A stretch of 64,000 bases of DNA from Verrucomicrobiia bacterium. GTDB lineage: Bacteria > Verrucomicrobiota > Verrucomicrobiia > Verrucomicrobiales > DEV007. The position numbers and the translations under genes were made by a program. The stretch lies in assembly GCA_030425385.1 (NCBI GenBank), contig JAUIAH010000012.1:1-64000 (forward strand). Reading direction: 5' to 3'. The notes under the pieces are model-generated. The model made no database searches, was not told the origin of the DNA, and saw only the letters and a list, made by a program, of their open reading frames with translations. Of this stretch, positions 2,066 to 40,300 are shown piece after piece (within the stretch, counting starts at the first letter, position 1; each line of letters opens with the position of its first letter).

Positions 2066-2124
2066 AGGGACAGGAGAGCCACATTTAAAGGGACAGGAGA
2101 GCCACATTTAAAGGGACAGGAGAA
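2036..2124. repeat. Tandem array of about 3.9 copies of the 23-bp unit catttaaagggacaggagagcca. It shares the TTTAAAGGGACAG core with the 1404-1443 repeats.
   Basis: Perfect head-to-tail copies at 2036-2058, 2059-2081 and 2082-2104, and a partial copy at 2105-2124. The array overlaps the 3' end of the RHS fragment ORF. Confidence 0.85.
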
Positions 2125-2174
2125 ATAATGGGAAAGCAGTTGTCAAGATCAAGAGGTGGGTGTAGGTCCGGATT

Positions 2175-3212: not shown

Positions 3213-3642
3213 TAGAGAACCACAAATGGACACGAAAGAGAGCGGAGTGATGGAAGCTGAAGGGGTTGGAGGGAGGCCGCGTGGGGAGATGAAGAGGGCT
3301 CGAGTAGTCGCCAAGGCGCAGAGGTGTTGTTAGAGCGGATTGGTGAGTGTTAGAACCTTGAGTGAATGAAGGCGAATGATCATGTGGATAGGCCGTCTTC
3401 AGGGAAAACGGAAGGGCCCTGAAGTTTGGACCACAGATCATCACCGATGAACACCGATGGATTTGATCGGTGCTTTGGAATTTGTGAGGTTGGGTGGGGT
3501 GATAGGGAAGTACGAAAGGAAAGTGGGCGAGAGTGAGGAAGGCTCGCGCAGTGTTGTTAGGCGGAAAGAGTTCGTTGGAATCTCACGATTCACGACTGTG
3601 AGCCGCGTCTCTCCTCGAATGGAATGTGATGAGAGATTAGTG

Positions 3643-4617
3643 TCAGGCGAAGGCTTTCATGAAACCGACCTCGATGGCAAGGGCGTCTTGCACGGTGGTT
3701 TCTAAGTGTCCACGCAGGTCTTCTAATGCCGCATAACGTTTGTTCAGTTCGGCGGGAGACAGGCCCTGAGCCACGCTTTGCGCGAGGCCCGCGTGAGCTT
3801 TGAAATCGAGCCGATCATAGCCCGCTTGGAGGCGGAGGGCATCGCCGAGGAAACTGAGCACTGCTTCCAACATCGACGTGCGTCGTTGGACGTATTCGGA
3901 TTCGGTGCGGTCTTTATAAAAGATCTCGCGTCGTTTCAACCAATCCCCATCGGTGGTCTCGCGGTAGCGATCCAATTCCTCGCGGAGCGCGTCGTCGTTT
4001 CCCTTGGTGATTTCCTCTTTCTCTGCTCTGAGGATGCCAGTGAAGGTCCGGGCGAGGATGAGGGCTCGCGAGAGGCTCCGGCGCGAGTCGGCTAGAGTGC
4101 CAGCCGCTGCTTGGAGGAAGTTTTGAAAGGTCTGTGAGAACTGCGGCTGGTGCCCTTCCTTGGAATAGAGTGGGACCTGCAAACAACGCGAACGGATGGT
4201 GTCTAACAATTGTTCGGGTTGTGCGGTGAGGAGGAGGAGCAGGGTTCCTGGAGGTGGCTCTTCTAACGTTTTGAGAAAGGCATTCTCAGATTCCGCTTGG
4301 AGTCGATCGGCATCTTGGATCACGCCGATCTTGGTCATTCCCGGGCGACCGGACAGGTGTAACTGTTTCTCCAGCGCGCGAATCTGATCGATCTTGATCC
4401 GACGCATGCGCGATTCGGGGCGGATGAGAAAGACGTGAGGATCGCGAATCTGGCTCACCGCGGTGGCGTGAAGGTCATTGGTGAGGGCGATCAGACGCAG
4501 GGCAAGGGCTTCTTTGCCTGCGCCTTCGGGACCGGTGAGGAGGTAGGCGTGCGCGAGCCGATCCTCGGCATGGGAACGCTGTAAGTAGCCAAAGGCCTGA
4601 TCAATCAAGAAGGCCAT
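3643..4617 (-). CDS. holB: DNA polymerase III subunit delta prime
   Basis: AAA-like clamp-loader motifs HAYLLTGPEGAGKEALALRL and SRC motif TIRSRC. I chose the internal Met (MAFLIDQ) as start because the longer ORF overlaps tmk; the 17-nt overlap with the tmk stop is typical of a tmk-holB operon. Confidence 0.8.
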   Translation of the reverse strand: MAFLIDQAFGYLQRSHAEDRLAHAYLLTGPEGAGKEALALRLIALTNDLHATAVSQIRDPHVFLIRPESRMRRIKIDQIRALEKQLHLSGRPGMTKIGVIQDADRLQAESENAFLKTLEEPPPGTLLLLLTAQPEQLLDTIRSRCLQVPLYSKEGHQPQFSQTFQNFLQAAAGTLADSRRSLSRALILARTFTGILRAEKEEITKGNDDALREELDRYRETTDGDWLKRREIFYKDRTESEYVQRRTSMLEAVLSFLGDALRLQAGYDRLDFKAHAGLAQSVAQGLSPAELNKRYAALEDLRGHLETTVQDALAIEVGFMKAFA

Positions 4618-24204: not shown

Positions 24205-24696
24205 ATGCCCCGTTGGCCCAGTTTAGTCGTCTTCGATCTCGATTTCACGTTGTGGGATGCGGGCGGTGTGTGGTGTGACTGTTTGAGGCCTCCTTTCAAG
24301 AATGACGGAGGTCGTGTGCTCGACGCTTCCGGCGCCCATGTATGGGTCTATCCAGAGACCCTGGCGTTGATCCATCGACTCCCCGAAGAAGGCTGCCAGC
24401 TTGCCTTGGCCTCGCGCACGGGGGAGCCAGATTGGGCGCGTGAGCTGCTTTGTTTGTTAGAGCTCACGGACGTGTTTCCTTACCAAGCCATCTATCCGTC
24501 GGACAAGCAGGTGCATTTCCAACAGTTGCGCGAAGAGAGCGGGATCCCGTTCGAGGAGATGCTTTTCTTTGATGATGAGGTTCGAAACATCAGGTCTGTG
24601 GGAAAGCTCGGTGTGCTCAGCGTTCAGGTTTCCCATGGCGTGCGACAGAGCGATTTCGATGCGGCTCTATCACAGTGGCGGCGGCGGTCTCCGTAG
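24205..24696 (+). CDS. Magnesium-dependent phosphatase-1 (MDP-1) family HAD phosphatase
   Basis: LVVFDLDFTLWD HAD motif I in the context typical of MDP-1 (PF12689); small size (163 aa). Confidence 0.7.
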   Translation: MPRWPSLVVFDLDFTLWDAGGVWCDCLRPPFKNDGGRVLDASGAHVWVYPETLALIHRLPEEGCQLALASRTGEPDWARELLCLLELTDVFPYQAIYPSDKQVHFQQLREESGIPFEEMLFFDDEVRNIRSVGKLGVLSVQVSHGVRQSDFDAALSQWRRRSP

Positions 24697-24767: not shown

Positions 24768-27700
24768 CTAGTCTCCTTGGCGCACCTTAGAGTCCACATC
24801 GACAGGAAGTTCGGAGGGAGCGGATTCTTGGACAGGGTGCACGTTGATGTCCACCTCGACGGGGACCGCGCGGAGGCTGGCGATGATCTGTTGGAGCTTG
24901 GCCACGGTCTGATCGGCTAAGGTTGCGGGCTTCTGTTGCTCTGTCAGGGCGTTGGAGAGAACGGCTTCAATGGCGGAGAGTTGCCCCACGACTCGGGTGA
25001 CGGGGTCGTTCTCACCCGCGCCTCCGGTGAGAAGATTGCGCCGGAATGTCTTGCGGATCTCCTCCCAGCGCGCAGCGGACTCCTCTGTCAGTGCGCCTTC
25101 CAATGCCTTGAATTTCAGAAGATTGGCCTCTGCCCCGGTCGTGAGGGTCTGTGCTTCATTCTCATAGTGGTCTAGGATCACTTGCTCCACCTCTTCGGGC
25201 GTCATGATGGGGAGAATCTTCTCAGCCATCCGATTCATGTTCCTGTAGGAGCCTTGCAGTTTGAAAGGTGGCTCAGTCCGATAAGCATCCGCTTGAGCGG
25301 CCGAACGGATGTACTCAAGATTCACGCGGAGGACGGTATCGCGCACCCGCATGAGCTTGCGCATGACGTCGACCATTTCCGTGAGTTCCTCAGGCGCGTA
25401 GCTGCCCTCAAGATCGATGCCTTCTTGCGAGCCTGTGCGGGCGATGGTGATGATTGCTCGGACATCGTTCTGGCTGCGTGAGGCGAGCGGTGCAAGGATG
25501 GCATTACTTGTCAGGCTGTTCTCCAAGTAGGAGTCCTCAAAGGCTTGCTGGTGAGTGCCGACGATGTCGCCAAGATTGTAGGTGTCGGCGCGGTTGGCAA
25601 GCATGTCAGGAATTTGAAATTTCCCACCACTCTCCGTGTAGGGATTCCCCGCCATCACGACCGCAACTTTGCGTCCCCTGAGATCATAGGTTCGCGCCAC
25701 GCCATTGTAGACTCCCTCGATGCGGCGTTGAGCGTCACATAAGGAGATGAACTTCTGGAGAAACTCGGGATCGCAGTGCTGGATGTCGTCCAGATAGAGC
25801 ATGACATTATCCCCCAGCTCCAGGGCGAGGTTGAGCTTCTTGACCTCCTCTCGCGCACTGGCATTGGGGGCTTCGTCAGGGTCTAACGAGCGCACATGAT
25901 GGCCGATGGCGGGCCCATTCACTTTGACAAAGGTGAGCCCAAGCCGGTCGGCAATGTACTCCATGAGCGTAGTCTTGCCGTAACCGGGCGGGGAGATGAG
26001 CAATAGCAATCCCATGCGATCCGTGCGAGTATCGGCTCCCGCCACGCCAATCTGCTTGGCAAGATTGTCGCCGATCATGGGCAAGTAGACCTCGTTCAAC
26101 AACTGGTTGCGGACGAATGCGCTCATCACCCGCGGCTTGAACTCCTCCAGGCGCAGGAGCGTCCGTTTCTTAGAGGTGAGGGTGTGTTTGAGGGCGGTGT
26201 ATTGCTCGAATAGTGGGAGGGTCTCACGCTGGTGGTGGTCCAGTTTCGAGAGGAAACGCGTGTAATGCAGATGGTAGGTTCCCTTCTTAATCACAGAGTG
26301 ATTCCCTAACAAGCCATCGATCGCTTGTTCCAGATTCACCGCGATGACTTCGCTCGATTCTGGAACACCCCTGAGCAAGTGAGCGGCGGCTTCGTCAATG
26401 TAGCTTGATGTGGGATGAGAGGCGCGCAACCAGTCGCGGATGACTTCAAACTCGGCCGCTGGATGGTCGTTTAATTGTTTCCGGGCCTGATCAAATGCGG
26501 TTTGTTGCCGCTTGGTGGTGAGTGTCTTCTGGAACGCCTTGACGATGTCGGCGGCCTCCGCACTGACGGTGAATCCAGGGCCATCGATTAGTTCATGAAA
26601 GAGATACTCGGCGACGGTAGGTGACCTGTCGCCTACCCATGCTGTGAGGCGTGCGATGTAGTCCTCCTGCACGGCTGCCGCCGTGTCGAATGCGGCGCGA
26701 AGAGCACCGTAAGAATGGAGTTGATGCAGGAGTTGCTGCCTCTCGGGGTCGCCCTGCCATTGTTTCCAAAGCACGATGGCCCGCGCGCGATCCGCCTGAT
26801 CGTAGCGGAGCAGCCCAGCTTCCGCACGCAAGGGCATGAGCGCCTCAAGCAAGCGATGCGCATCGGCGTCGTGCACCCCCTTGGTGTAGCCTTCTGTGTA
26901 ACGCGGCGCCATGAATTGCTGGATGGCTTCGAGGGTTGGCTCGCCCTCTGGATGCGCTTGGAGATACTGGAAGGCCAAGTATTCGCCGCGATAGACCGTC
27001 TCCGATTCTGAGGGAAGCTCCAAGGACCAAGCGGCGCGGGTATCTTCAAAAGCGGGGTCGGTAATCGGTTCGAAGAAGTTCGTGCCCGTGAGGTGGTAGG
27101 CCATGATGTCCTCACGTGGCACCACCGTGAGCTCCAAATCTTGCTGATTCACCGTGAAACGATGCTGACCTAACTGAATGATGTTCTCACCGTCTGCATA
27201 CAGCTCCTGCCGATCTTTGAGTTGTCTAACGGAATCCTCACGCAAGGTCTTCAAGCGTGCTTGGATGGCGTCGGCCTTAACGGAATCGCCCAATGCCTGC
27301 AATTGGGTGACGATGTCGCGCACTTTCTCGATCATCAGATCGGAGGCGAGATAGGCATGAATCTCGGAGAGTTCCTGGAACCCGTCCAGGCGATTGCCGA
27401 TGCTTTGGAAGATGCGGTCGGCGGACTTTTCAAGATTGGAGGCACGCTTGTTGCGCGCTTCTAGCAGAGTCACTTTTCGAGCTTCGAACGCATCGTAGAT
27501 CTCCGTGCGTTTGTCTGCGAGTTCGGCCACGTAGTCGTCGAACTCGGCATACTTTCCTTCCAGTTCCTCTAACTGGACCATGGTCTTGGTGAGGTAGGAC
27601 TCACATTTGTCTGGAGAATCACAGAGTTCGAGGTAGTTCACCACCGCCTGATTGAGGAGCTTCAGCTGGGCGTGAAATTGTGCGGCTCCTTCGGCACGAC

Positions 27701-29723
27701 CGAGTTCGCGCAGACGATTCTTCAGCGTGACTCGGACCTGATTCAGGGTGCCGTAGATGTCGGAAATGCCGTCAATGATCTGGGTAGTCTGCGTGGCGTC
27801 CTCGATCTTGAGATTCGTGACGATCTCAATCAGCATCTCCAACTCCTCGCCCGCCTGACTCAAGGCCTCATCGATCACCTTGCCATCAGATACTTTAGCG
27901 ATCGCATCGACGGCTTCTTTCTGATCGTGGATCTGCTTGCGATAGGGTGCGAGCGCCTCTTCCTGCAGGAGAAAGTCGACGCAGTGCCCGGAGACGCGCT
28001 CAGTGATTGCTTGGATCTCTTCCTCCAATGCCTCCAACTGCTCGCGATTGACGTAGCGAACGTCTCGCAGGGAAATGACCTCTCCTCGCACAGTTCGCAA
28101 ATCTGCTAGGTGCTTCACGTAGCCCTTGATGTCGTCGGGACGACTATGCTCTGCCTCAGATATGAGTTTGCGGGCGTGTGCGGTGAGGGTGCTCGTCTGC
28201 GCTGCGGCGGATTCTCGCAGGCGTGTGACCTTGTCAAATTCGGCAATGGCGGATTCTGCCGCCGTTTGGATCGATTCTAACGGTTCACTGATGGCAAAGG
28301 CTTCTTTGTGCCCCACCCAGAAATAGGCATTGCGCACATCGGCCGCTTTCTTGGCAAGGTCGTGGTAGAGATTCGCGTAGGCATCGTCTTTTCCCAAGAG
28401 ATTGATCACCTCCTGACATTCGGCCATGCAGCGCACGATGTCGGCATTGCCAATCTTGTAGAGATAGTGGTCGCTATGTGAGGACGGCTTCTGAAGGTCG
28501 GCATTCACATAGGGCGTTTGCCAGACTTGTAGCACATGATGCTTCTGCGGTTGATTCTCCGTACGGAAATAGATCAGTTCACCGTCGTCGAAGATGCTGT
28601 AGCCGTGACAAGTGATCGGTGTCTCCACTTGCTGATCGATCACATTGTAAGACATGAGAATGTAATCGCCAGAAGCCCGGTTGTAGAAGGCGTAGAGATG
28701 ATCTTCGCCATTGGGGGCTGAGACTCGCCGTTCAAAGATCATCCTCGTCAGGCCGCTATCGTAGAGCTTGGTCTCGCCTGTTTGAAGGTGAAAGCCGTTG
28801 GAGAAGATGATGCCGTGGTCCTCTGGCAAAAGTACACACGCATCCTCGATGGCATCCAGACGATGCACTGATTGGACCTTCTCGTTGTAGACCAGGTAAC
28901 GGAAGGCGTTCTCTTGATAGGGGCGAATCTTGAGGATGATGAGGCTGCCGAGGATGGCGTAGAGAACCTCGGCATCATCGAGAGTCTGGTCAGCTTCGGT
29001 CACGGGCTCGGCGTAGATGCCTTCGCCGCTATCGGTGTTGTCTTCAATCTTGATCGTGAGATCCCCGCCGACGGTTTCAACAAAGACGCGGTCTTCAATG
29101 GAAATGTGAGGGTGTTCGCCGCCCCGTTGCATGTCGCGGTGGGCCCGCTTCCATTCGAATTCTTGCTGGGGAGGAAAGCGATACTCATGGTCCGAGCGAT
29201 TCCCTTCGTAGATGAGCTTGCCATTATCATTCAGTACCCATTTGAAGGTCTTCACATCAGTCACCTCGCGGCCGGAGCGGAACGCCATGTAGAGATGTGG
29301 GCCAATGAGGAGAAACTTGGCGAAGACCGTCTCGCGGTAGTATTTGTAGAGATGAGCGAAGTCCCGGTGGAATTCGGCATCTGATAGGATGTCTCCGAGA
29401 TCGATGGGGGTGAAGGCGTGATCCTCGCTGCTATAATGATAGGCTGCAAAGACGTCGGCGGGTTCGGTCGTCGATTTCAGGCCGATGTGGACATTGAATC
29501 CGAAGAGGAAACGGCCTTGGCCGATGGACACCATGTCTCGCGGAACACAATTGTGTTGTGTGGACACGCGCTCGGTCGCGATGAGACTCGGCTCGATGGC
29601 GCCAAAGACTTCCTGGCGAGTGCGATTGAGATCACTGAGCCGTTGGCGAAGGTCATCTCCCTGCGCTTGCAGGCGTTGGCGGATGACTTCGTAGGCTCCT
29701 GATTCTAAAGTTGGTTCAGGCAT
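24768..29723 (-). CDS. Giant (1651 aa) cytoplasmic protein: ~1100-aa N-terminal region of unknown function with central coiled coils, a C-terminal AAA+ ATPase module (AAA_5/MoxR/dynein-like) and a ~250-aa tail. Last gene of the NfeD-flotillin operon.
   Basis: Walker A LLLISPPGYGKTTLM. Walker B-like VMLYLDDIQH (note D-D). Sensor-1-like VVMAGNPY. No TM segments or signal peptide. 60-bp gap to the upstream flotillin gene on the same strand. Confidence 0.7.
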   Translation of the reverse strand: MPEPTLESGAYEVIRQRLQAQGDDLRQRLSDLNRTRQEVFGAIEPSLIATERVSTQHNCVPRDMVSIGQGRFLFGFNVHIGLKSTTEPADVFAAYHYSSEDHAFTPIDLGDILSDAEFHRDFAHLYKYYRETVFAKFLLIGPHLYMAFRSGREVTDVKTFKWVLNDNGKLIYEGNRSDHEYRFPPQQEFEWKRAHRDMQRGGEHPHISIEDRVFVETVGGDLTIKIEDNTDSGEGIYAEPVTEADQTLDDAEVLYAILGSLIILKIRPYQENAFRYLVYNEKVQSVHRLDAIEDACVLLPEDHGIIFSNGFHLQTGETKLYDSGLTRMIFERRVSAPNGEDHLYAFYNRASGDYILMSYNVIDQQVETPITCHGYSIFDDGELIYFRTENQPQKHHVLQVWQTPYVNADLQKPSSHSDHYLYKIGNADIVRCMAECQEVINLLGKDDAYANLYHDLAKKAADVRNAYFWVGHKEAFAISEPLESIQTAAESAIAEFDKVTRLRESAAAQTSTLTAHARKLISEAEHSRPDDIKGYVKHLADLRTVRGEVISLRDVRYVNREQLEALEEEIQAITERVSGHCVDFLLQEEALAPYRKQIHDQKEAVDAIAKVSDGKVIDEALSQAGEELEMLIEIVTNLKIEDATQTTQIIDGISDIYGTLNQVRVTLKNRLRELGRAEGAAQFHAQLKLLNQAVVNYLELCDSPDKCESYLTKTMVQLEELEGKYAEFDDYVAELADKRTEIYDAFEARKVTLLEARNKRASNLEKSADRIFQSIGNRLDGFQELSEIHAYLASDLMIEKVRDIVTQLQALGDSVKADAIQARLKTLREDSVRQLKDRQELYADGENIIQLGQHRFTVNQQDLELTVVPREDIMAYHLTGTNFFEPITDPAFEDTRAAWSLELPSESETVYRGEYLAFQYLQAHPEGEPTLEAIQQFMAPRYTEGYTKGVHDADAHRLLEALMPLRAEAGLLRYDQADRARAIVLWKQWQGDPERQQLLHQLHSYGALRAAFDTAAAVQEDYIARLTAWVGDRSPTVAEYLFHELIDGPGFTVSAEAADIVKAFQKTLTTKRQQTAFDQARKQLNDHPAAEFEVIRDWLRASHPTSSYIDEAAAHLLRGVPESSEVIAVNLEQAIDGLLGNHSVIKKGTYHLHYTRFLSKLDHHQRETLPLFEQYTALKHTLTSKKRTLLRLEEFKPRVMSAFVRNQLLNEVYLPMIGDNLAKQIGVAGADTRTDRMGLLLLISPPGYGKTTLMEYIADRLGLTFVKVNGPAIGHHVRSLDPDEAPNASAREEVKKLNLALELGDNVMLYLDDIQHCDPEFLQKFISLCDAQRRIEGVYNGVARTYDLRGRKVAVVMAGNPYTESGGKFQIPDMLANRADTYNLGDIVGTHQQAFEDSYLENSLTSNAILAPLASRSQNDVRAIITIARTGSQEGIDLEGSYAPEELTEMVDVMRKLMRVRDTVLRVNLEYIRSAAQADAYRTEPPFKLQGSYRNMNRMAEKILPIMTPEEVEQVILDHYENEAQTLTTGAEANLLKFKALEGALTEESAARWEEIRKTFRRNLLTGGAGENDPVTRVVGQLSAIEAVLSNALTEQQKPATLADQTVAKLQQIIASLRAVPVEVDINVHPVQESAPSELPVDVDSKVRQGD

Positions 29724-29783
29724 GCGTACTGTGAGGGGCGACAGGAATCCTGTCGCCCTCTGGTGACTGGGCTGCAGTGAGGA

Positions 29784-31838
29784 TTATCCAGCGATCTGCT
29801 TGAGCGCTTTGCCAGCATTCACGCCATCAAGTCCGAAGCGCTTGGCATTGTCTAACAAGCCCTGCAATTGCCCTCGCGTGTCGTCATCGTTGCAGGCAGT
29901 GATCATTTGACCGAGGGCAGCGCTGACACTGAGGTTCTTGAGGTCTTCTGTGGAGAAACCAAAGTCATCGATCCAGCGCTTTAGCTGACCACGGAAGTAG
30001 GCGGGATCTCCATTGAAGAAGGTTTCTTTGACATCGGTGAGGGCTTTGCTGTTATTCAGAGCCCTGTCGACCGCCTTGCCAGTGGTCACGGCTCCAGCGA
30101 TCTTGTCAAAGAAGGCGCTATCGCCGCCGATGATATCGACGTTAGCATTCTCGAGGGCTGTGCCCACGACTTCTGAGTGACGCGAGGCGATCTCACGTTG
30201 TGCTTCGATATCAGCCAGCTCGATCACTTTCCGCTTCTCTAGATCGAGGCGGAACTCCTCGTGTTCGCGTCCTTCGCCGTCGAATTGCTTCATGGCTCCC
30301 GCCTTCTCGGTGATGCCTTTGGCTTCTGCTAGGGCCTTCAACTCGATGACTTTCGCCTCGGCAGCACCTTGCTTTTGTGAAGCGGCGGCCTTGGCCTCGA
30401 TTACCTGAGCTTCGCCCAAGCCCGTGGCGGCAGATTCTGCGGCGGTGGCTTCCGCGAGGGTCTTCTTGGCAATCGCCGTCTTGTCGGCGGCCGCCTGCTC
30501 CGCTTCGGCACTGATAAGAATCTCATCGGCGTGCAACTCGGCTGCTTGCTTCTTCGCCTCGGCATCTTTCACGGTGCGATACAGTTCCTCATCGGCCTTC
30601 ATTTGCGCCGCTTCCTTCGTGGCCTCCGCTTCTTTGATCTGTTTCACGAGCGCTTCTTGCGCCTCCATCTCGGCAAGCGTCACTTTCACTTTCCGCTCCC
30701 GCTCGGCACCAGCAAAGGCCTCGGTATCCTTGATCTTCTCTTGCTCTTCTACGACCGTCTTCTCCACGGCGACGCGCTCTTTGATCACGTCTTGAATGTT
30801 CTTCTTCTCGACCTCAAGCGCCTTGTCGCGCTCGATCGCTTTTAATTCCGTCATCCGTTCGCGTTCGATTTCCTCTAACATGCGGTCACGCTCCACCCGT
30901 TCGGCTTCCACCACATCCGTGCGTTCCTTATTGCGTTCCGCCACGATGACCTGGCGTTGCTTGTTCTGGGTGGCGATTTCAATCTCCTCTTCCGTGGCGA
31001 TGCGTGCGCGCTCGGATTTGAGGCGCTCTTCCTGGGCGACTTTCTGGGCTTCGGCTTCCTCACGTGCTTGCACGGATAGAATCTCGCGTTCTTGCTTGGC
31101 GGTTGACTCAGCCAGCTGCCGATTCAATTCCAAGATGGCTTCTTCAGCTTCCACATCTTGCTGACGGATGACGCGTTCCTTATCGCGATCGATCTGGTTG
31201 GCCAGTTTCGCCTGTTCAGCGGTCAGATCCGTGATCTTCTTGATCCCTTCGGCATCAAGGATATTGTCAGGATTCAAGCTCTCGAGTGGGGTTTGTTCTA
31301 AATGGTCAATGGCGCAGTCATCGAGCACAAAGCCGTTCAGATCCGTACCGATCAGCTTGAGGATCTCTTCGCGGAAGGTGTCGCGCTCTTCGTAGAGTTC
31401 GGCGAATTCGAACCGTTTCCCCACCGTCTTCAGGGCTTCGGAAAACTTGGCGTCGAAGAGATCCTGGATCTCCTCTTGGCTAGAGGCGCGATCGCAACCG
31501 ATGGCGGATGCCACGCGTTTCACATCCAACTCTTCATTGTTCACCCTGACAAAGAACACGACTTTGATGTCAGCGCGCATATTGTCCTTACAAATGAGCC
31601 CATCTTTCCCTTGGCGGCTGATTTCGATGCGCTTCACAGAGATGTCCATGACCTCCGCCTTGTGAATGACCGGAATGACAGGGACACCAGTGAAGCAGAC
31701 TTTCGTCCCGCCCATGCCATTGCGAACGAGGGCTTCGCCCTGGCTCACTTTGCGATAGCACTTGATAATGAGGATGATGAGGCCGACGACCAAGAGGATG
31801 GCCACGGCGATGAGGACTTTGGCGACTTCAGCAGGCAT
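29784..31838 (-). CDS. Flotillin (SPFH/band-7 domain, YqiK-like) with a long Glu/Ala/Lys-rich coiled-coil region
   Basis: N-terminal TM VLIAVAILLVVGLIILII. SPFH block GEALVRNGMGG...VPVIPVIHKAEVMDISVKRIEI. Extended EA-rich flotillin repeats. The preceding gene is NfeD-like. Confidence 0.85.
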   Translation of the reverse strand: MPAEVAKVLIAVAILLVVGLIILIIKCYRKVSQGEALVRNGMGGTKVCFTGVPVIPVIHKAEVMDISVKRIEISRQGKDGLICKDNMRADIKVVFFVRVNNEELDVKRVASAIGCDRASSQEEIQDLFDAKFSEALKTVGKRFEFAELYEERDTFREEILKLIGTDLNGFVLDDCAIDHLEQTPLESLNPDNILDAEGIKKITDLTAEQAKLANQIDRDKERVIRQQDVEAEEAILELNRQLAESTAKQEREILSVQAREEAEAQKVAQEERLKSERARIATEEEIEIATQNKQRQVIVAERNKERTDVVEAERVERDRMLEEIERERMTELKAIERDKALEVEKKNIQDVIKERVAVEKTVVEEQEKIKDTEAFAGAERERKVKVTLAEMEAQEALVKQIKEAEATKEAAQMKADEELYRTVKDAEAKKQAAELHADEILISAEAEQAAADKTAIAKKTLAEATAAESAATGLGEAQVIEAKAAASQKQGAAEAKVIELKALAEAKGITEKAGAMKQFDGEGREHEEFRLDLEKRKVIELADIEAQREIASRHSEVVGTALENANVDIIGGDSAFFDKIAGAVTTGKAVDRALNNSKALTDVKETFFNGDPAYFRGQLKRWIDDFGFSTEDLKNLSVSAALGQMITACNDDDTRGQLQGLLDNAKRFGLDGVNAGKALKQIAG

Positions 31839-31873
31839 AGGTTTCTGGTGTTCGAGGTTGAGGTGGTTGGTGA

Positions 31874-32512
31874 TCAGGAATCGAGTTTGCGAACAATGTA
31901 TGTTTGCGCGTTGTCGAGCGTCTCCACGACGAGGGCGCGATCGCCCTTGCTGAGTGGCTTCTGGCCCTCGGAAATGCGGACGTGGAGGAGGAGGGGATTC
32001 CCCGATTCATCCTCACATTCGGCTTGTCCGAAGTCTTCGGTCACTTCACTTGTCTTGATGATGCAAGAGCGCCCCACGACGGGGCGATGTTTCTCGCCCG
32101 CACGGAGGGCGCGCATGAAGGGTTTCAGCGGTGTCGTCACCAACTTGGTGGCGAAGAGACACACGATGAAATTGCCTAACAAAAGTCCGGCAGCCAAGGG
32201 CAGAGACCCTTGGGGATTCAGGTAGTAATTGAGTAAGACCGACGTGCCCCACATCAAGGCGATGAGCACGGATAACAAGACCATGAGGGGGATCTCCCCA
32301 AGGTTGAAGAACCGCAGTAACCCTAACCGGAAACTGCTTCCATGGGCGTCCGCATCGGCATCGGCATCGAGATCCACATCGAGGTCGGGCTCTAACGAAT
32401 CGGTATCTGCGGCGCCGACGATCGTGAGCACCCAGAAGAGCACGACCAATCCTAGCAAGATGGTGAGCGGGAAATTCGGGAGTTTGAGAGCTTCGTGTAA
32501 GAGATCAGACAT
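31874..32512 (-). CDS. NfeD-like / YqiJ-like (DUF1449) membrane protein with a C-terminal OB-fold-like domain
   Basis: Three predicted TM helices followed by a ~80-aa beta-rich soluble C-terminus. It sits 35 bp upstream of the flotillin gene on the same strand, the canonical yqiJ-yqiK arrangement. Confidence 0.75.
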   Translation of the reverse strand: MSDLLHEALKLPNFPLTILLGLVVLFWVLTIVGAADTDSLEPDLDVDLDADADADAHGSSFRLGLLRFFNLGEIPLMVLLSVLIALMWGTSVLLNYYLNPQGSLPLAAGLLLGNFIVCLFATKLVTTPLKPFMRALRAGEKHRPVVGRSCIIKTSEVTEDFGQAECEDESGNPLLLHVRISEGQKPLSKGDRALVVETLDNAQTYIVRKLDS

Positions 32513-32732
32513 TCAGAGGCACTGTTTCGGTATGCCTATGTTATGTGATCGAACTCAAACTGCGATTACAATCCCTCAGAGGGTTTCTAATGAGGAAATC
32601 CCCTGATATCCTATGTGACTCAAGATGGCAAGTCAATCCAAGAGCATGCCCACGGTGCCCGGCCGGTAGAAGGAACCGATCATCTCAATCTCGGGACGGT
32701 TCGCCGGGTAGATTCTCTCTTCCGCCCTCGGA

Positions 32733-33413
32733 TTAGCTCCGTCGGCGGCGAAAGAGCAAGGAGGCTCCCAACAGTCCGAGAAGGCTCACGGAGGGCTCAG
32801 GGATGGCATCAGCCGCGCGCAACTCCACGTCGTCGAACATTGCCGACTGCGGATTGGCTTGAGCATCCATCCCGTCGACCATGCCGACGCGAACGACAGC
32901 GCTCGTGGCACCGGCGGGAGCCACCGTCGAGAGCGTGTAATTCTGCCAGCTTCCATCTTTGGGATGGGAATCGATGTTGCTGGATTCCATTGACAGGACG
33001 TTGTCTGATCCATCGAGGAAATCGACCGAGAAGAATGTGGACGCCGCTGTGTAATTGGCTTCCTGCTTGCTCCAGACGGATAGCTCGTAACTGAGACCAC
33101 CCATGACAGCGACCGTCTGAGAAGCGGTAGCGTTCGCAAGGGCATCGCCCGCGGCTTGCGCGCCTTCGAACGCTTTCAGCCATAGACCAACGCCCGGGTC
33201 CCCATTGGGATTGCTTGCCCAACCGGCATCTTGATACTGTGCGGAGAAACCCGTGCCATCTGGCTGATTCGCTTCCAAATTCCACACAGGATTGGATTGG
33301 CTGTTGGCGGTAGACATCTCGAAACCCGAATCCACGAGGATGTTCGTAGCGCCCATGGAGGAAGTGAGGCCCAAGGCTGCGAGGGCTCCGACAAGAGGAA
33401 GGGGTGATTTCAT
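32733..33413 (-). CDS. PEP-CTERM sorting-domain protein with an N-terminal carbohydrate-binding-like beta-sandwich domain
   Basis: Signal peptide. C-terminus ...AIPEPSVSLLGLLGASLLFRRRRS (PEP motif + TM + Arg tail). The N-terminal ~150 aa are paralogous to the N-terminus of the adjacent 1261-aa protein (NLEANQPDG.GFSAQYQ.AGWAS...GLWLKAFEG). Confidence 0.7.
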   Translation of the reverse strand: MKSPLPLVGALAALGLTSSMGATNILVDSGFEMSTANSQSNPVWNLEANQPDGTGFSAQYQDAGWASNPNGDPGVGLWLKAFEGAQAAGDALANATASQTVAVMGGLSYELSVWSKQEANYTAASTFFSVDFLDGSDNVLSMESSNIDSHPKDGSWQNYTLSTVAPAGATSAVVRVGMVDGMDAQANPQSAMFDDVELRAADAIPEPSVSLLGLLGASLLFRRRRS

Positions 33414-33475: not shown

Positions 33476-36400
33476 CTACTGGGAATTCTGCAAACGATAG
33501 AACCCCTTTTCCTGAGATACGCGGGTCGGCTCGCGGTCGAGGTAGACGCCGTTCGACGATTGTCCAACTTCTTGCCAATCAACGAGATCTGTCGAGAAAG
33601 CAATGCCAACGGATTCCTGGGCATCCAGCTCCAAGCGGATGCCGTCGACGGATCGCTCAATCGTTTGGATCTGAGGTATCCCTGGAGCCGAGCTTTCACC
33701 CCTCTCAAAGGCGATGAGGACGGGGCTGAAGCCTTCTGGCAAGGGGCCATTGACCACGGCATCCCATTCTCCCACCTGGCTTGCTCGGTAGACTTCTAGG
33801 GCGGCCCCGCCGGTGCGATTATACATCAGCATCTCTAGGCGATGCTCCCCGGCCTCCAGGTGAATGGTGCGCATGGTGTGATTGCGACCGCGATTGCCGT
33901 CGAATTCGATGATCTCCGTCCCGTTGATGCGAAGTTGGCCCCCGTCATCGGAGTTGAAACCGATCCCCCACGGTCCGGATTCCGCGACCACGAATTTCCC
34001 AACGGCATGCACGATGAAGTGGTCTCCTACCTCACCGTCGAAGAGCACATCGCCAGGAAGGCTAGCGGTATTCGCCTCGGTGTCCGTGAAATTGATCACT
34101 TCGTGAAGCGCCACCGTCTCAATCCCTGGCGCCCTTCCATCGAGCAGGGCGCGTGCATCTGCTAGAGATTGCACTTGTCCATCATCGCTCACAATGGTGC
34201 GCACGACAAAGCGGTTGGGCTGGCTAGCAGCCGAAAGCGGATCGACGTCATTGTCCAATTCGATCTTATCACTAAACCCATCGCCATCGGTATCTGCTAG
34301 TTTAGGATCAGTGAGAGTTTCTTGACGTTCAGTGAGATCATTCAAGCCATCGCCATCGGTGTCCGCATTGATCGGATTCAATTCGAGCGCGATCTCCTCC
34401 TGATCTTCGAGCCCATCACTATCAGAATCACGTGCCGTGGGATTCGTCCGATGCACCATCACCTCCTCGCCATCGGAGAGTCCATCGCCATCGGTGTCGG
34501 CCACCTTGGGATTCGTGACCAGGGTCTGCTCGTTAAGATTGGTGAGCCCATCATGATCGGGGTCGGCTTCAGGCTCTGCTGACAAATCACCAAAGTTCTC
34601 CATTTCCCAAGAATCACGCAAGCCATCATTGTCCAGATCACCAGCATCGCGAAGCAATGTCAGGGTGCCGTCTCCTGAAATCCCTTCATCCAATCCGAAG
34701 ATCGCGAGCAGGTCCGCGGCGTCAAAGGGGCCGTTGGACTCGACCACATCGGAAAGGCTGAAGCTGACGTCACCACCTTCCGTGAGTCCGATCAAGTCGC
34801 CCACAGCCACATCGTCATCTAGAATCAACTCGAAACCGGTGCCCTGCAATTGCAGGATGGCATTAGGGCTGGAAAGGGGATAAGCAAAGGTGAGGGCTCC
34901 GTTGGCAATGCGAATCACGCCCGTGCCGAGCGATCCAGGAGTTGTCCCCGTCGCATCCACGCCATCAAACCGCATTTCCCCAGAGAACTGGCTTCCTGCC
35001 CCTGACAGCATTACCTTGGCAGTGGTCTCGGGATCATCACCGGTGAAACGCACGGTCCCATTGCCTTGAAGCACCGAGGCGAGGTCCAACTCATGATCAT
35101 GCACGGCAACGTCCACATCGCCACTCAGCGTCAACACCCCTTCCAGCCGATTCGAATTGCCAACATCGACCATGGCATCACGAATCACCAAAGGCGCCGA
35201 AGCGGAGCCCTCATGGGCCAATGATAGAGTCATGTGAGGTCCTCGCACTTCAAGCAAGTCTCCATCAAATGGGCCCCGGGAACTCACCAAGGTATTGGTC
35301 ACTCCGCCAAGTGCCAAATATGTTTTGCCGGCAGTAGGAACCGCCTCATCTGCCCAGGTCGCCGCCACGTTCCAAGCACCGTCCGCACCTGCCACCGTCA
35401 CTGTGGGAGCGTCGTTGGCGTTGAGAGGATCTGTCTCTAACGCTAACTCCACATTGTCCGCATACTCGTCTCCGTCGGTATCGCGCTTGGCGGGATCCGT
35501 TCCAATCACATTGACTTCTTCGGGATCTGTGAGGCCGTCGCCATCGGTATCCACCATGGCTGGACTACTCCCATGTTCCGCCACCTCGGCGCCATCTTCC
35601 AAGCCATCGCCGTCCGAATCTCTTTCCGTTGGATTTGCCATGGCTGCCAACTCATCGCGGTCATTGAGCCCGTCGCTATCGGCATCGCCGGTGCCGTCGC
35701 GCGTGAGATCACCGAAGAAGAAGCGCTCCCGGAAATCATCCATGCCATCACTATCAGTATCCTCGGTCACCACCTGGTGAACGTCATATCCTGACAAGAG
35801 TTCATAGAATTCTTCCGTCACTTGGGGTGGCTCCGTTCCTTCATCCAGGACGAGCCGTCCGATAAAGAGACTCACTCCGGCACCGCCTGCCGCCTCCCAA
35901 TGGAGCAGTTCGAAGGTGTGCAATCCTGCCTCCAATTCCGTGGTGAGCACCGAATTCATCCGCGAGCGATTGCCGAAGGTTCCCACCAACTCGCCGTCGA
36001 CTTTCAATTCGAAGCCATCATCGCTATTCACCACGAAGGGGACGATGCCGCCTTCTTTAAGATAGAATTCTCCCGTGGCTAGGATCGCATAATGATCGGA
36101 TCCTTGCAAAGACACCTCGCCGTCCAAATCCGGATCGAAGAGCGGATATGGCCGCGAAGCGCTTTCGTAGATTGGCGGCGCTCCGCCATCATCGAAGTGC
36201 ACGAAGGGGACCGTGAACGTTCCGCGCCCCTCTGCTTCTTGATCTTCAAAGGAAGCCCGCGCCAAGGCCGCATCGGTGATCTCAACGCCCGTGCCATAGA
36301 CATGCAAGACATCGACCGTTCCCCCCGCGTAGAGAATCGATCCGGGGACACGATGCCTGCCCTCGGCAGCGATCACTTCCCCATTCTGATCCACTGCTTG

Positions 36401-37237
36401 AAAGACCCAGGGAATCCTCGCATCTGCCTCAAACGGTGTTTCTGATAGATAGGTGAATGCGGTTAGCGTTCCCTGTTGTGAATTCTCTAATGGCACGTCC
36501 TCGCCCCCGAAAGTGAGTCTTGCTGAATCGGGATCCACGGTGCTTCCCTCGGTATTCTCTACCACAATGCGAAACCGAGTCGTCCCTCCGCCCGAATCGA
36601 CCACTTGCGCTACCGAGGCCAGTTCGACGGCGGTGAGGCTGAAGTCATCAACCATCGCGGACTGCGGATTTGCCATGGCATTCACCCCACCGACCATGGT
36701 TGCGCGCGCCTGGAGTTCCGTGGTGCCCTCTGGCGCCGTGCCCTTCGCCGAGAAGAATTCCCAAGAACCATCGGCGGGATGTTTCCCGTTCAGCTCGTTC
36801 TCCACACTGGCAAGGATCTCTCCGGCGCCATTGAGAAAGTCCAGGGCAAGAATGGTAGAGGCCGAGCTATAGTTTGTCTCCACCCGCACCGCGGCGCGCA
36901 ATTCATACCCCTGCCCGGCCTCTCCCGGCACGCGTTGGGTGAGGGTGACTTCAGCCGCAGGCTCCGTCTCCGAGTTGCCACCTTCGAATGCCTTCAGCCA
37001 GAGCCCGATCCCTGCGGTGCCCGCTGGGTAGCTCGCCCAGCCTGCCGATTGATACTGCGCCGAGAAATTCTGTCCGTCTGGTTGATTGGCCTCCAGGGTC
37101 CAACTTGGATTCTCCTGTGAGGCCGGCTCAGAAGCCTCTAGAGAGGGATCTGCCAACAGATTCACCTGTGCCTGAGCGAGAACACTGGTCGCTAGGAGAC
37201 CAGACGAAATGATTAAGAAGGGGGCCTTGGGTCGCAT
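33476..37237 (-). CDS. Giant secreted surface protein (~1250 aa) with: an N-terminal CBM-like domain; two PA14 domains; two blocks of thrombospondin type-3 (Ca-binding DxDxDG) repeats; and a C-terminal FYRL-ending beta-sandwich module.
   Basis: Signal peptide MRPKAPFLIISSGLLATSVLAQA. PA14-like segments GEFYLKEGGIVPFVVNSDDGFELKVDG and GKFVVAESGPWGIGFNSDDGGQLRING. Repeated DTDGDGLSDGEE-type motifs. C-terminus ...FSTDLVDWQEV...GFYRLQNSQ. Confidence 0.7.
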   Translation of the reverse strand: MRPKAPFLIISSGLLATSVLAQAQVNLLADPSLEASEPASQENPSWTLEANQPDGQNFSAQYQSAGWASYPAGTAGIGLWLKAFEGGNSETEPAAEVTLTQRVPGEAGQGYELRAAVRVETNYSSASTILALDFLNGAGEILASVENELNGKHPADGSWEFFSAKGTAPEGTTELQARATMVGGVNAMANPQSAMVDDFSLTAVELASVAQVVDSGGGTTRFRIVVENTEGSTVDPDSARLTFGGEDVPLENSQQGTLTAFTYLSETPFEADARIPWVFQAVDQNGEVIAAEGRHRVPGSILYAGGTVDVLHVYGTGVEITDAALARASFEDQEAEGRGTFTVPFVHFDDGGAPPIYESASRPYPLFDPDLDGEVSLQGSDHYAILATGEFYLKEGGIVPFVVNSDDGFELKVDGELVGTFGNRSRMNSVLTTELEAGLHTFELLHWEAAGGAGVSLFIGRLVLDEGTEPPQVTEEFYELLSGYDVHQVVTEDTDSDGMDDFRERFFFGDLTRDGTGDADSDGLNDRDELAAMANPTERDSDGDGLEDGAEVAEHGSSPAMVDTDGDGLTDPEEVNVIGTDPAKRDTDGDEYADNVELALETDPLNANDAPTVTVAGADGAWNVAATWADEAVPTAGKTYLALGGVTNTLVSSRGPFDGDLLEVRGPHMTLSLAHEGSASAPLVIRDAMVDVGNSNRLEGVLTLSGDVDVAVHDHELDLASVLQGNGTVRFTGDDPETTAKVMLSGAGSQFSGEMRFDGVDATGTTPGSLGTGVIRIANGALTFAYPLSSPNAILQLQGTGFELILDDDVAVGDLIGLTEGGDVSFSLSDVVESNGPFDAADLLAIFGLDEGISGDGTLTLLRDAGDLDNDGLRDSWEMENFGDLSAEPEADPDHDGLTNLNEQTLVTNPKVADTDGDGLSDGEEVMVHRTNPTARDSDSDGLEDQEEIALELNPINADTDGDGLNDLTERQETLTDPKLADTDGDGFSDKIELDNDVDPLSAASQPNRFVVRTIVSDDGQVQSLADARALLDGRAPGIETVALHEVINFTDTEANTASLPGDVLFDGEVGDHFIVHAVGKFVVAESGPWGIGFNSDDGGQLRINGTEIIEFDGNRGRNHTMRTIHLEAGEHRLEMLMYNRTGGAALEVYRASQVGEWDAVVNGPLPEGFSPVLIAFERGESSAPGIPQIQTIERSVDGIRLELDAQESVGIAFSTDLVDWQEVGQSSNGVYLDREPTRVSQEKGFYRLQNSQ

Positions 37238-37385
37238 CGAACAATCACAACACGTTCGCATTCAACAGCAAGCGCTTTGTGAAGAGAATGTTTCGATGTG
37301 TTAGCGTGTGCCTGCCCTGTGAAACGAAATGTCCTGATTCAGTGGCTTGCCTTTCTTGGTAGGGGGCAGAGCGTCCTTCTGTCTC

Positions 37386-40300
37386 ATGATTGTGTATCTC
37401 CCTATCAAACGCCTCTCGCTACTTCTCGCGTCCATCCATGCCAGCTTGCTCTGTCTCGCTCACAGCCAGGGCTTGGCCGATGGGTTGGTCTCCTATTGGC
37501 CACTCGATGATGGCCTTCCCTCACGCATGACGACTTCCATTAGCGATCTGCAAGGTGCCAATCCTCTAACATTAGACGCCTCGGATCCCGAATCTGCCTG
37601 GCTGACAGGGCCTTCGGCTAAGTCGCGCGGGGCGTTGCAAGTAGATGGCGAAAGCCGCTACGTGGTCGTGCCTTCATCGGAGACGCTCGATCTCGGCACG
37701 AATGCGGTGACCCTATCGGTTTGGGTGAACCTTGCGCAGTTACCCGCGGATCTGCCCGATGCCTTTGGCGGCATCTTTGATTCGGCGAATGATGCCTATG
37801 TCCTCTACCTCGATCGCGGTGCGAACGAGTTGCGTTTCAAAGTCACGGCGGACGGAGCGCAGCGTCCTGGAATCCCTGCCGCAGATCTCACGGTGGGCGA
37901 ATGGATGCACGTCGTCGGAGTCTACGATGGCGTGGAGTCTCGCATTTATGCCAATGGTGAATTGAAAGACACCCACGCAGGACCTACAGGCCAAGTGATC
38001 AGTGGGCAAATCGCCGGTATCGGTCGTAATGGGGACGAGGATCGCTATTTCCTTCAGACGGCAATCGACGAGATGGCGCTTTGGAATCGAGCCCTCACTG
38101 AATCTGAGATTCAGACTATCAGAGACACAGGGCTTGTCTCGATCGATGATTCGGAGGCTGATGGCATGCGAGATTCCTGGGAAATGGAGACGTTTGGCAA
38201 TCTCGACAGCGACGGGACGGGCGATGGCGACAACGATGGTCTCACTGATCTGGAAGAGTTCACCCACGGCACACTTCCAGACACGGCGGACAGCGACATG
38301 GATGGTCTGCAAGATGGCGACGAAGTGGCGACCTATGGTTCGGATCCACTGCACGCGGACACCGATCGCGATGGGATTTCTGATAGTGACGAAGTTGCTA
38401 GTAACACCAGCCTCACACGTGCAGACACGGATGGCGACGGATTAACTGATCTTGAAGAAGCCACCGTCTATCAAACCGATGGCACCCTGGCCGATAGCGA
38501 TGGTGATGGATTCACGGATTCCCAAGAATTGGCCGCAGGCACGGATCCCAATGTGCAGGGCGATTTGCCGGGCAGCAATACGGTCTTTCTGGTGCGTTCG
38601 GCGATGGCCGGGGAAACGTGGATGGAACCAAGCTTGTGGTCGGATGGGGCCGCGCCCCAAGCTGGAAAGCACTATGTGATCCCTGGATTCGGTGCCGATG
38701 AATTGGTGGTCATGGCCGAAGGCGAAACGACCTTTCCTGGCGATTCGCTTGCGGTCTTCACAGGTACTCAATTGCGCCTTTCTCAAGCGGGCACAGGCGT
38801 GATCACCATCCCCTCGCTCGTGCTCAATGGGGGGCAGTTGGTGATCGAGGGCACCACCGCATTGACCCTCGCCGGAGAGGTCACCGTCACAGGAAACACG
38901 CAGATTGCGTTAGGAGCCGAAGGCGACGCTGTCACCCTAGCATCCACCCTTGCAGGTGATGGTCAGTTGACCGTTCGGGCGCCCATGGGTGAAACGACTC
39001 CCCGCACCTTTATCCTGGCGGGCTCCGGGAGCACCTTTGCAGGTGATCTCATCTTTGATCACGTTTCGCTCAATGCCAGGACGCCTGGATCTCTTGGCAA
39101 TGGCAACGTCCACATGATCAGCAGCAGCATTGATATCGATTACAATGCCTACAATCCTGAATCCAGCTTAACCCTTGCGGGTGCTGGTTCTATCATTGTT
39201 CTTGATCAATTCCTGATCTTCAAAGCGCTTATCATCGCAGAGACCACATTTCCTGATGGCACCTATGACTTTGCAGCTTGGGAAGCGCTTGATCCGAATG
39301 CCGCCGATTTCATCATGGACGGCGGGGGAGCCATTGTGATTGGCGGAGATTCTGACAATGATCGGCTCCTAGATGCGTGGGAATTGCGCTATTTCCCCGA
39401 TCTTAGCACCTCAAGTGGCGGGGATGATCCTGACGGGGACACGCTCAGCAATGAGCAAGAATTCATTGCCGATACCAATCCTACCTTGCTCGACACGGAT
39501 GCCGACACGCTTTCTGATGCCGATGAAGTCAATACGCACGGCACGAACCCGCTGGTGAGTGATACGGATGGGGATCGCCTAACGGATGCCGAAGAACTCG
39601 CTCGCGAAGAGCCCAGCAATCCTCTGCGTGCGGACACGGACGCTGATGGTCTCTCGGATGGCGACGAAGTGCTCGACTATCTAACCAATCCTCTCCTTGC
39701 CGATAGCGATGAGGACACATATGCCGATGCCTTTGAGATCCATGATAATGGCGACCCATTGGATGCCAATGTGATCCCGCGATTGGCGCAATTGAACCTT
39801 CTCGACGGACTCGTTTCCTTCTGGACATTCAATGATGGGCTCACTCGGGCAGACACCTTGTCCATTGCCGATGTCCAAGGGCGCAATCATTTGCAACTCG
39901 TCTCACCAGATGCTGCCGCCGCTTGGCTATCAGGTGAACTGGCCAAGAATGACGGTAGCCTGCGCATTCTCGGAACCGAAACTTATGTGCCCGTTCCGAA
40001 CACGCCGAGCCTTAATCTCACGACGGATGCCGTCACGCTTTCGGCTTGGGTGCAGCTTGATGAATTGCCCAGTGCCATGGCGAGTAGTTTCGGTGGGATC
40101 TTCGATTCTCGCAATGACGCTTATGTGCTCTATTTGGATCGTGGCAATGCGGAATTGCGTTTTAAAGTCACCGCAACGGGAGCCGAGCGCCCAGGCATTC
40201 CCGAGTCAGAATTGACTCTTGGAGAGTGGCTGCACATCGCCGGTGTTTACGATGGCGCGGCGCAGGAATCCCGCATTTATCTAAATGGGCAATTGATGGA

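Follow-up and report, generated by a model that had tools for sequence, protein, structure and literature searches.

The window, by which we mean the whole 64-kb stretch of DNA analysed here, carries a further member of a computationally known bacterial system: a YqiJ/NfeD-like protein, a flotillin of the YqiK type and a giant soluble ATPase, encoded by three genes that form one predicted operon. Whichever of the two is used as the seed, this flotillin and this ATPase are almost obligately linked across genomes. We regard it as somewhat probable that the flotillin is a scaffold at the cytoplasmic membrane face, working with its YqiJ/NfeD partner and a dedicated MoxR-class remodelling ATPase, that the locus is the PspA-less form of an operon which Ravi et al. 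(2024) described, and that the flotillin cage is remodelled at the expense of ATP during envelope stress.

All three open reading frames lie on the minus strand. The yqiJ/NfeD-like gene (212 aa, positions 31874..32512) is followed after 35 bp by the flotillin gene (684 aa, 29784..31838) and after a further 60 bp by the gene for the giant ATPase (1651 aa, 24768..29723), which databases automatically name 'DNA repair ATPase'. The layout is the one that a first, sequence-only reading of this DNA had given. The terminator scan, which like the promoter scan yields no more than chance, detects no hairpin of terminator type on this strand in either of the two gaps. A sigma-70-like promoter match lies on the minus strand some 100 bp upstream of the yqiJ-like gene (32608..32636) and is at chance level: the scan returned three such sites in the region with 3.6 expected. 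Searched with Rfam, the window has no match to an RNA family. A public metagenome contains an almost identical contig (99%), in which the neighbouring genes are the same. Around the triad the window otherwise holds genes that look like housekeeping genes or genes for secreted proteins.

The 212-aa protein is 24% identical to E. coli YqiJ over residues 13–196, almost its whole length (E = 6e-7), and matches the Pfam family YqiJ_N (PF21001; E = 2.4e-6; 28.2 bits, cut-off 23). Its three hydrophobic segments (residues 8–40, 65–96 and 102–127) are accompanied by a D-rich acidic loop, and the C-terminal part is soluble. The Pfam model of the NfeD OB-fold was not detected in residues 100–212, although this region aligns with the C-terminus of YqiJ. 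Together with its position 35 bp upstream of the flotillin gene, these features agree with the earlier description of the product as a YqiJ-like membrane protein.

Over 421 aa the flotillin and E. coli YqiK share 31% identity (E = 2e-47), in an alignment that spans anchor, SPFH domain and coiled coil. Its hydrophobic windows fall within residues 1–32 and make up a single N-terminal anchor in front of the SPFH/Band_7 domain (residues 30–171, 31326..31751, minus strand; PF01145; E = 1.5e-12; 48.4 bits, cut-off 23.6), which has a median identity of 66% across phyla. Searched at full length, the protein has no match in Pfam or NCBIfam because the coiled coil masks the SPFH domain; the trimmed sequence revealed PF01145. 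The coiled coil itself (residues 200–520, 30279..31241, minus strand) consists of 19% A, 19% E and 11% K and aligns with that of YqiK; the identification as a YqiK-like flotillin with a Glu/Ala-rich coiled coil, already made from the sequence, holds. The YqiK alignment ends at about residue 415 and leaves the C-terminus unaligned. Here the flotillin carries a domain specific to its subfamily (residues 560–684, 29787..30161, minus strand) that neither aligns with YqiK nor matches Pfam: even at E values up to 1 the C-terminal 185 residues have no significant Pfam match, and hence no recognisable flotillin-type domain. The length of this domain is nearly constant, 116–126 aa in 56 loci, while the aligned segment 183–560, which includes the coiled coil, takes up 345–462 aa across related loci. 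Searches of the PDB with the full-length flotillin, with residues 1–230 or with a 15-sequence profile gave no match.

The giant ATPase has no hydrophobic segment and is a soluble protein. The sequence-only reading had left some 1100 N-terminal residues without a family; about half of this region can now be assigned. Residues 24–468 (28320..29654, minus strand) match DUF3686 (PF12458) at 623.8 bits against a cut-off of 25, an N-terminal helix followed by a divergent beta-propeller, and residues 589–673 (27705-27959, minus strand) match DUF7902 (PF25472, E = 1.8e-27). The latter lies within a probably helical, coiled-coil segment (residues 469–845, 27189..28319, minus strand) of fixed length: it counts 376–378 residues in 56/56 loci despite a median identity of 47%. 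The part that stays without a family comprises the C-terminal tail and the middle domain (residues 846–1196, 26136..27188, minus strand), for which neither Pfam nor a PDB search by sequence or profile returns a match. In the AF2 model the middle domain consists of a helical bundle preceded by a small beta element, with pLDDT mostly above 90; it is the least conserved structured part of the protein (median identity 36%). The AAA+ module (residues 1197–1560, 25044..26135, minus strand) is followed by the variable tail (residues 1561–1651, 24771..25043, minus strand) of low pLDDT, 36–253 aa long across loci with a median identity of 22%. A profile of the family finds PDB matches confined to about 40 residues around Walker A. 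There are more than 5000 homologs, and 738 clusters at 50% identity carry the N-terminal domain; among the members listed, full-length proteins mostly have 1600–1900 aa. All homologs among the matches listed have PF12458 and PF25472, and all but one have PF00004.

As the sequence-only reading had guessed, homologs go under an uninformative automatic name, 'DNA repair ATPase', and Pfam describes DUF3686 as an 'ATPase involved in DNA repair'. Taken at its word, the name would make the giant protein a true DNA-repair ATPase whose adjacency to yqiJK is incidental. Weak P-loop matches to RuvB, and RuvB and MCM among the AAA+ matches listed by Foldseek, lean in this direction. Pfam finds no DNA-binding or nuclease domain in the protein, the name is unsupported and has no traceable experimental basis, and we consider this explanation scarcely credible. 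Our literature search returned no paper that mentions DUF3686, and none that combines 'DNA repair ATPase' with flotillin.

The closest fold to the AAA+ module is that of MoxR members (the AAA_5, or helix-2-insert, clade). The motifs picked out in the sequence-only reading, GYGKTT, LYLDD and MAGNPY, lie at residues 1247, 1309 and 1357. They correspond to Walker A (GYGKTT, with K1250), Walker B (VMLYLDD, with D1312-D1313) and a candidate sensor-1 (N1360); R1378 is a candidate arginine finger. The invariance of the ATPase residues indicates that the giant protein is under selection as an enzyme. Walker B departs from the canonical hhhhDE of the MoxR class: DD is found in 57/57 aligned sequences and in 296/305 database homologs, and the canonical DE in none. 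Judged from sequence, such a Walker B could mean slow or switch-like hydrolysis, not a motor. MoxR ATPases normally act with a VWA/MIDAS partner. No gene for such a partner is conserved beside the triad when all flanking open reading frames of 80 loci are clustered, and none of the genes inserted between flotillin and ATPase is related to VWA. The MoxR proteins CbbQ and NorQ, whose VWA partners are CbbO and NorD, are stand-alone modules of about 260 aa, whereas here the module is the C-terminus of a 1651-aa protein, is just 13–15% identical to them in sequence, has the DD Walker B and has no conserved VWA partner gene nearby.

We surveyed the gene neighbourhood in 80 ATPase-seeded loci that represent Verrucomicrobiota, Planctomycetota, Bacteroidota, Desulfobacterota, Clostridia, Kiritimatiellota, Omnitrophota and Lentisphaerota. 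The flotillin gene lies upstream on the same strand in 62/65 ATPase-seeded genome loci, the exceptions being L021, L035 and L044, and tblastn finds an NfeD-like gene as well in 52/63; the spacing between NfeD-like and flotillin genes is very tight, often a 4-bp overlap. Conversely, seeding metagenome loci on the C-terminal 165 residues of the flotillin alone, which contain the domain 560–684, places the giant ATPase downstream in 44/45. The triad is thus conserved as a unit. Identity across phyla is 44–60%, with fixed architecture and segment lengths. Over the 80 loci the only conserved neighbours are the flotillin and NfeD-like genes, joined in Bacteroidota by PspA, CesT and HTH-S24: in 15–20 Bacteroidota loci CesT_Tir_1 and PspA_IM30 genes precede the triad on the same strand, and a divergent gene encodes a LexA-like regulator (HTH_3 plus Peptidase_S24). 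In other genomes the gap between flotillin and ATPase genes collects AbiEii, DUF559, PDDEXK_3 and DMP19 genes. The length of the flotillin coiled coil does not co-vary with that of the helical segment of the ATPase (Spearman 0.12), and there is accordingly no sign of the two lying alongside each other.

The connection to PspA is documented in the literature. Passages of Ravi et al. (2024; mSystems, PMC11237479) describe an operon CesT/Tir-PspA-YqiJ/YuaF-flotillin-(beta-propeller + coiled-coil + AAA+) within the phage-shock (PspA) membrane-stress network, give Dokdonia donghaensis ANH61663.1 as an example of the full arrangement, and state that 'abbreviated' operons devoid of PspA are widely distributed; the functional statement in these passages is a prediction only. 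Independently, Popp et al. (2022) connect PspA with neighbours of the band-7/FloT and NfeD types. The three proteins in the window are those of the Ravi et al. passages, alike in domain architecture and gene order, and our Bacteroidota loci reproduce the full form described there, including the divergent HTH + protease regulator. A giant AAA+ extension of yqiJK, which the sequence-only reading had placed outside established knowledge, had thus been described in those passages already. The window differs from their full form in lacking CesT, PspA and the regulator: tblastn with the PspA, CesT and HTH-S24 queries of a Bacteroidota locus (L026) finds nothing significant across the 64 kb. With the CesT/Tir-PspA dyad absent, the locus is of the abbreviated form, and the link to envelope stress is here drawn by analogy with other phyla. 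What our analysis adds to those passages is the MoxR clade, the invariant DD, the fixed segment of 376–378 aa, and the flotillin C-terminal domain with its 44/45 pairing.

The better-known relatives are the E. coli yqiJK and B. subtilis yuaFG pairs (floT; SPFH2 group, Hinderhofer et al. 2009, PMC2636767), in which, as here, an NfeD-like gene precedes one for an anchored SPFH flotillin with a Glu/Ala-rich coiled coil. Unlike in the window, yqiK is followed in E. coli by sib/ibs loci and not by a giant ATPase gene, and YqiK lacks the C-terminal domain of about 120 aa. An ATPase partner is mentioned neither by Hinderhofer et al. nor in a 2026 paper on P. aeruginosa SPFH proteins, MoxR is unmentioned in the 15 best-ranked literature matches for MoxR with flotillin or SPFH, and our literature search found no experiment on any member of the giant-ATPase/flotillin family.

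SPFH scaffolds coupled genetically or physically to an AAA+ ATPase are familiar from HflK/C-FtsH and prohibitin-m-AAA, and the triad resembles them in this respect. A rival explanation is membrane protein quality control, with the clients rather than the cage or PspA as substrate: the cage would confine damaged or unfolded membrane proteins, and the giant AAA+ protein would extract or unfold them as a protease-less counterpart of FtsH or m-AAA. The linkage of flotillin and ATPase genes fits this explanation as well as it fits cage remodelling, SPFH cages around AAA+ machines have a precedent in the HflK/C cage that encloses FtsH hexamers (Fu and MacKinnon 2024), the propeller is a plausible client-binding platform, and in S. 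aureus flotillin microdomains are described as stabilising unfolded proteins in passages of a further study (PMC11222466). FtsH, however, is a membrane-anchored protease of the classical AAA clade inside a periplasmic cage, whereas the giant ATPase is soluble, MoxR-like and without a protease domain, and the bulk of the flotillin is predicted to be cytoplasmic. No protease gene is conserved in the operon either, the DD Walker B would be unusual for a processive unfoldase, and the best match of the AAA+ module is to MoxR, whose members act on assembled complexes as remodellers and are not known to thread substrates. On balance quality control strikes us as rather unlikely.

Defence systems commonly pair large ATPases with membrane proteins. 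In an anti-phage, abortive-infection role, which the sequence-only reading had listed among its options, a membrane sensor pair would be coupled to a large ATPase effector triggered by infection; besides the common pairing, the genes inserted between flotillin and ATPase elsewhere and the CI/LexA-like repressor of the Bacteroidota version point this way. Yet the three proteins match PADLOC-DB 2.0 only weakly, by way of their coiled coil (LmuB, 3.9e-6) and P-loop (IetA, mad8). In the helical segment of the ATPase the match, again weak, is to LmuB/SMC-like models in their coiled-coil part. The neighbours of the three genes in the window give weak partial matches in ankyrin-type and methyltransferase-type regions. 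Pfam detects no nuclease, protease or pore-forming effector domain. The fixed architecture and segment lengths and the 44–60% identity across phyla are also unlike fast-evolving, patchy defence genes. We consider a defence role improbable and, given the PADLOC results and the neighbourhood, have rejected it.

The membrane-tethered, ATP-driven machine proposed in the sequence-only reading remains the best interpretation, and we infer that the three proteins form a complex. The flotillin would be anchored by its N-terminal hydrophobic segment and, with SPFH domain and Glu/Ala-rich coiled coil mediating oligomerisation, would build a cage at the inner leaflet, comparable to those of flotillin-1/2, a cage of 44 subunits (Fu and MacKinnon 2024), and HflK/C; its subfamily-specific C-terminal domain would then be the cytoplasm-facing end of the cage. 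Like CbbQ and NorQ, the giant ATPase may assemble into a ring by way of its AAA+ module; the N-terminal beta-propeller would bind the cage or proteins held in it, and the fixed-length helical segment would be a rigid spacer or lever that connects the propeller to the ring. ATP turnover would assemble, open or dismantle the cage, or PspA polymers recruited there, during envelope stress.

In bacteria and eukaryotes alike it is still being asked how cages of SPFH proteins and flotillins are put together, opened and recycled, and we know of no energy-consuming regulator of flotillins. We tentatively put forward a bolder version, possible though speculative, in which the giant ATPase serves bacterial flotillin cages as a dedicated engine for disassembly or gating: a MoxR ring would use six long, fixed-length, propeller-tipped arms to grip the subfamily-specific C-terminal domain of the flotillin and would open the cage or recycle it. 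If so, SPFH scaffolds would have their first known energy-dependent regulator, and Vps4 with its action on ESCRT-III would have a counterpart in bacteria. Since the operon association has already been published as a prediction, what the present analysis contributes is detail that is sharper and can be tested: the MoxR clade, the DD Walker B, the arm of fixed length and the flotillin C-terminal domain as a candidate docking site. Found in eight phyla or more, a flotillin subfamily that is matched almost one-to-one by a large ATPase offers a natural experimental entry to the cycling of flotillin cages and to the connection between PspA/ESCRT-III membrane repair and flotillin domains.

The ORF list of the window contains three minus-strand genes exactly where the sequence-only reading had proposed an operon: an NfeD-like (YqiJ-like) gene (31874..32512, 212 aa), a flotillin gene (29784..31838, 684 aa) and the gene of a giant ATPase (24768..29723, 1651 aa), with intergenic gaps of 35 and 60 bp. 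Because the next ORF downstream (24205..24696) runs on the opposite strand, the unit terminates with the giant gene. The GC content of the triad region (0.55–0.57) is that of the remainder of the window, and a contig from a public metagenome run, 99% identical, has the same neighbours around the operon. On the operon's strand, a 226-aa ORF (32733-33413, minus) precedes the NfeD-like gene by 220 bp; neither Pfam nor PADLOC gives a match for it. The near-identical metagenome contig has this ORF too, but other triad loci do not conserve it. Close upstream of the triad lie two divergently transcribed genes for giant proteins of 1261 and 1431 aa (33476-37261, minus; 37347-41642, plus), presumably secreted or surface proteins, with bacterial TSP3 repeats and PA14 or Laminin_G_3/pentraxin-like domains. 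Other neighbours in the window encode a HAD phosphatase, a beta-helix protein and a tRNA methyltransferase. Positions 2001-4000 have a GC skew of 0.364, against an absolute value of at most 0.12 elsewhere in the window; a 345-aa ORF in this stretch (2175-3212, plus) contains, by eye, the motif 'HLHLV', which recalls tyrosine transposases of the IS200/RAYT type.

The first two genes are correctly described as a yqiJK pair. The 212-aa protein, which has three hydrophobic segments, matches YqiJ_N (PF21001, E 2.4e-6) and shares 24% identity with E. coli YqiJ across residues 13-196 (E 6e-7). Full-length flotillin gives no match in Pfam, NCBIfam, PADLOC or PDB; its N-terminal 230 residues searched alone match SPFH/Band_7 (E 1.5e-12), and thus the coiled coil (19% A, 19% E) had masked the domain. 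Aligned directly, the flotillin and E. coli YqiK are 31% identical along 421 residues (E 2e-47), from the N-terminal anchor through SPFH domain and Glu/Ala-rich coiled coil. What is added to the pair is a C-terminal domain: this comparison finds nothing in YqiK that corresponds to the final ~120 residues, which belong to no Pfam family.

The 1651-aa protein is soluble, and most of its length can be assigned to families. Its N-terminal region, earlier left unassigned, matches Pfam DUF3686 (residues 24-468, 623.8 bits), itself an uncharacterised family rather than a well-characterised unrelated enzyme. DUF7902 follows at residues 589-673, and AAA models match residues ~1240-1363 with scores just over their cut-offs. 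In the predicted structure of residues 860-1651 (pLDDT 85.5), a helical bundle with a small beta element (~846-1196), for which no match was found anywhere, is followed by the AAA+ module and then by a disordered tail. Databases list over 5000 members of the family, commonly under the names 'DNA repair ATPase' and 'MoxR-like ATPase', and a role in DNA repair is suggested by the former name alone. Similarity to RuvB spans ~50 residues at Walker A and reaches 26.5 bits, where the family cut-off is 282, and the protein has no DNA-binding or nuclease domain; the name probably spread via coiled-coil similarity to SMC/SbcC-type proteins (cf. the LmuB match).

The architecture of the family is essentially fixed. 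Clustered at 50% identity, its N-terminal domain falls into 738 groups, and most of the listed full-length members have 1600-1900 aa. Across 56 loci from eight phyla, K1250 (Walker A), D1312 and D1313 (Walker B), N1360 (candidate sensor-1) and R1378 (candidate arginine finger) are invariant. Walker B (codons of D1312-D1313 at window 25784-25789) reads hhhhDD in all 56, never the canonical DE; among 305 database homologs 296 have DD and none DE, which could make for slow or switch-like ATP hydrolysis. The helical segment 469-845 (window 27189-28319) measures 376-378 residues in all 56 loci, yet is 47% identical, which points to a strict geometric constraint. Little length variation is also seen in the AAA module (363-371 residues) and in the C-terminal domain of the flotillin (116-126); the flotillin coiled coil spans 345-462 residues and does not track the length of the ATPase segment (Spearman 0.12). 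Some homologs, such as P0122 and P0171 (Desulfobacterales, metagenomes), carry ankyrin repeats of several Pfam families, and P0219, a homolog with a high score, belongs to a eukaryotic protein set and may reflect contamination or gene transfer.

Is the ATPase a regular partner of the pair? We scanned for ATPase homologs in one genome per species and kept the best 80 loci (44-59% identity), by record titles 36 from Bacteroidota, 20 Verrucomicrobiota, 11 Planctomycetota, five Clostridia, three Desulfobacterota, one each Kiritimatiellota, Omnitrophota and Lentisphaerota, and two unclassified. Flotillin lies upstream on the same strand in 62 of 65 loci whose upstream sequence extends for 2.3 kb or more, three loci lacking an adjacent flotillin, and tblastn also detects the NfeD-like gene in 52/63. 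Conversely, in a metagenome scan seeded with the flotillin C-terminal domain alone (best 80 matches), the ATPase follows in 44 of 45 loci whose downstream sequence reaches 3 kb or more. The synteny expected of a genuine operon is thus present in other genomes, and the pairing is near-obligate within these samples, which lean to closer relatives because each comprises the 80 best matches. When all flanking ORFs were clustered, no neighbour beyond flotillin and the NfeD-like gene was conserved across the whole locus set.

The NfeD-like and flotillin genes lie close together, in several loci with an overlap of 4 bp, and the distance between flotillin and ATPase genes is anything from -11 to 2360 bp. 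Long gaps hold unrelated small genes, different per locus (related loci L001 7501-7920, L043 7353-7910, L029 6609-7695, L016 7228-7896, L079 7501-7893 and L075 7012-7968): PDDEXK_3, DUF559 (Vsr-like endonuclease), the DMP19 DNA mimic with DUF3997, an AbiEii toxin and a biotin/lipoyl-domain protein. In an otherwise fixed operon, the flotillin-ATPase gap seems to be a hot spot at which small genes of a selfish or toxin type insert. Phage defence, an option raised by the sequence-only reading, is not borne out for the triad itself: PADLOC matches of its three proteins are weak and confined to coiled coil and P-loop, window neighbours give only weak partial matches, and the architecture is fixed across phyla, unlike that of typical defence genes.

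In 15-20 Bacteroidota loci, genes for CesT_Tir_1 (131 aa) and PspA_IM30 (~240 aa) proteins precede the triad on the same strand, alongside a divergent HTH_3 + Peptidase_S24 (LexA/CI-like) regulator. The same CesT-PspA-triad neighbourhood was published by Ravi et al. (mSystems 2024, PMC11237479; preprint 2020), who describe abbreviated operons without PspA as widely distributed and whose supplementary entry for Dokdonia donghaensis (ANH61663.1) has the identical gene order. Popp et al. (2022) independently linked PspA with band-7/FloT and NfeD neighbours. No PspA, CesT or LexA-like gene lies within the 64-kb window, which therefore has the abbreviated form. The flotillin-giant ATPase association is already in the literature, where we found no experimental work on the ATPase: the system is real, conserved and experimentally uncharacterised.

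The DD Walker B, the three loci without an adjacent flotillin and, unusually for a MoxR ATPase, the absence of a VWA partner count against a remodelling role or stay unexplained. Client-directed quality control is possible and hard to tell apart from such a role by sequence work. What the analysis shows is the identity of the domains, linkage in both directions and, in another phylum, operons in which the triad is joined to PspA. The reading with most support places a flotillin cage at the cytoplasmic face of the membrane, together with its NfeD partner and a MoxR-type ATPase dedicated to remodelling. The flotillin-1/2 cage and HflK/C around FtsH (Fu and MacKinnon 2024) are structural precedents. 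The ATPase would form a ring, its predicted DUF3686 propeller docking on the flotillin C-terminal domain and the fixed-length segment 469-845 serving as spacer or lever. Through a physical interaction with flotillin, it may remodel the cage itself or PspA polymers that the cage recruits, and the system would have a stress function.
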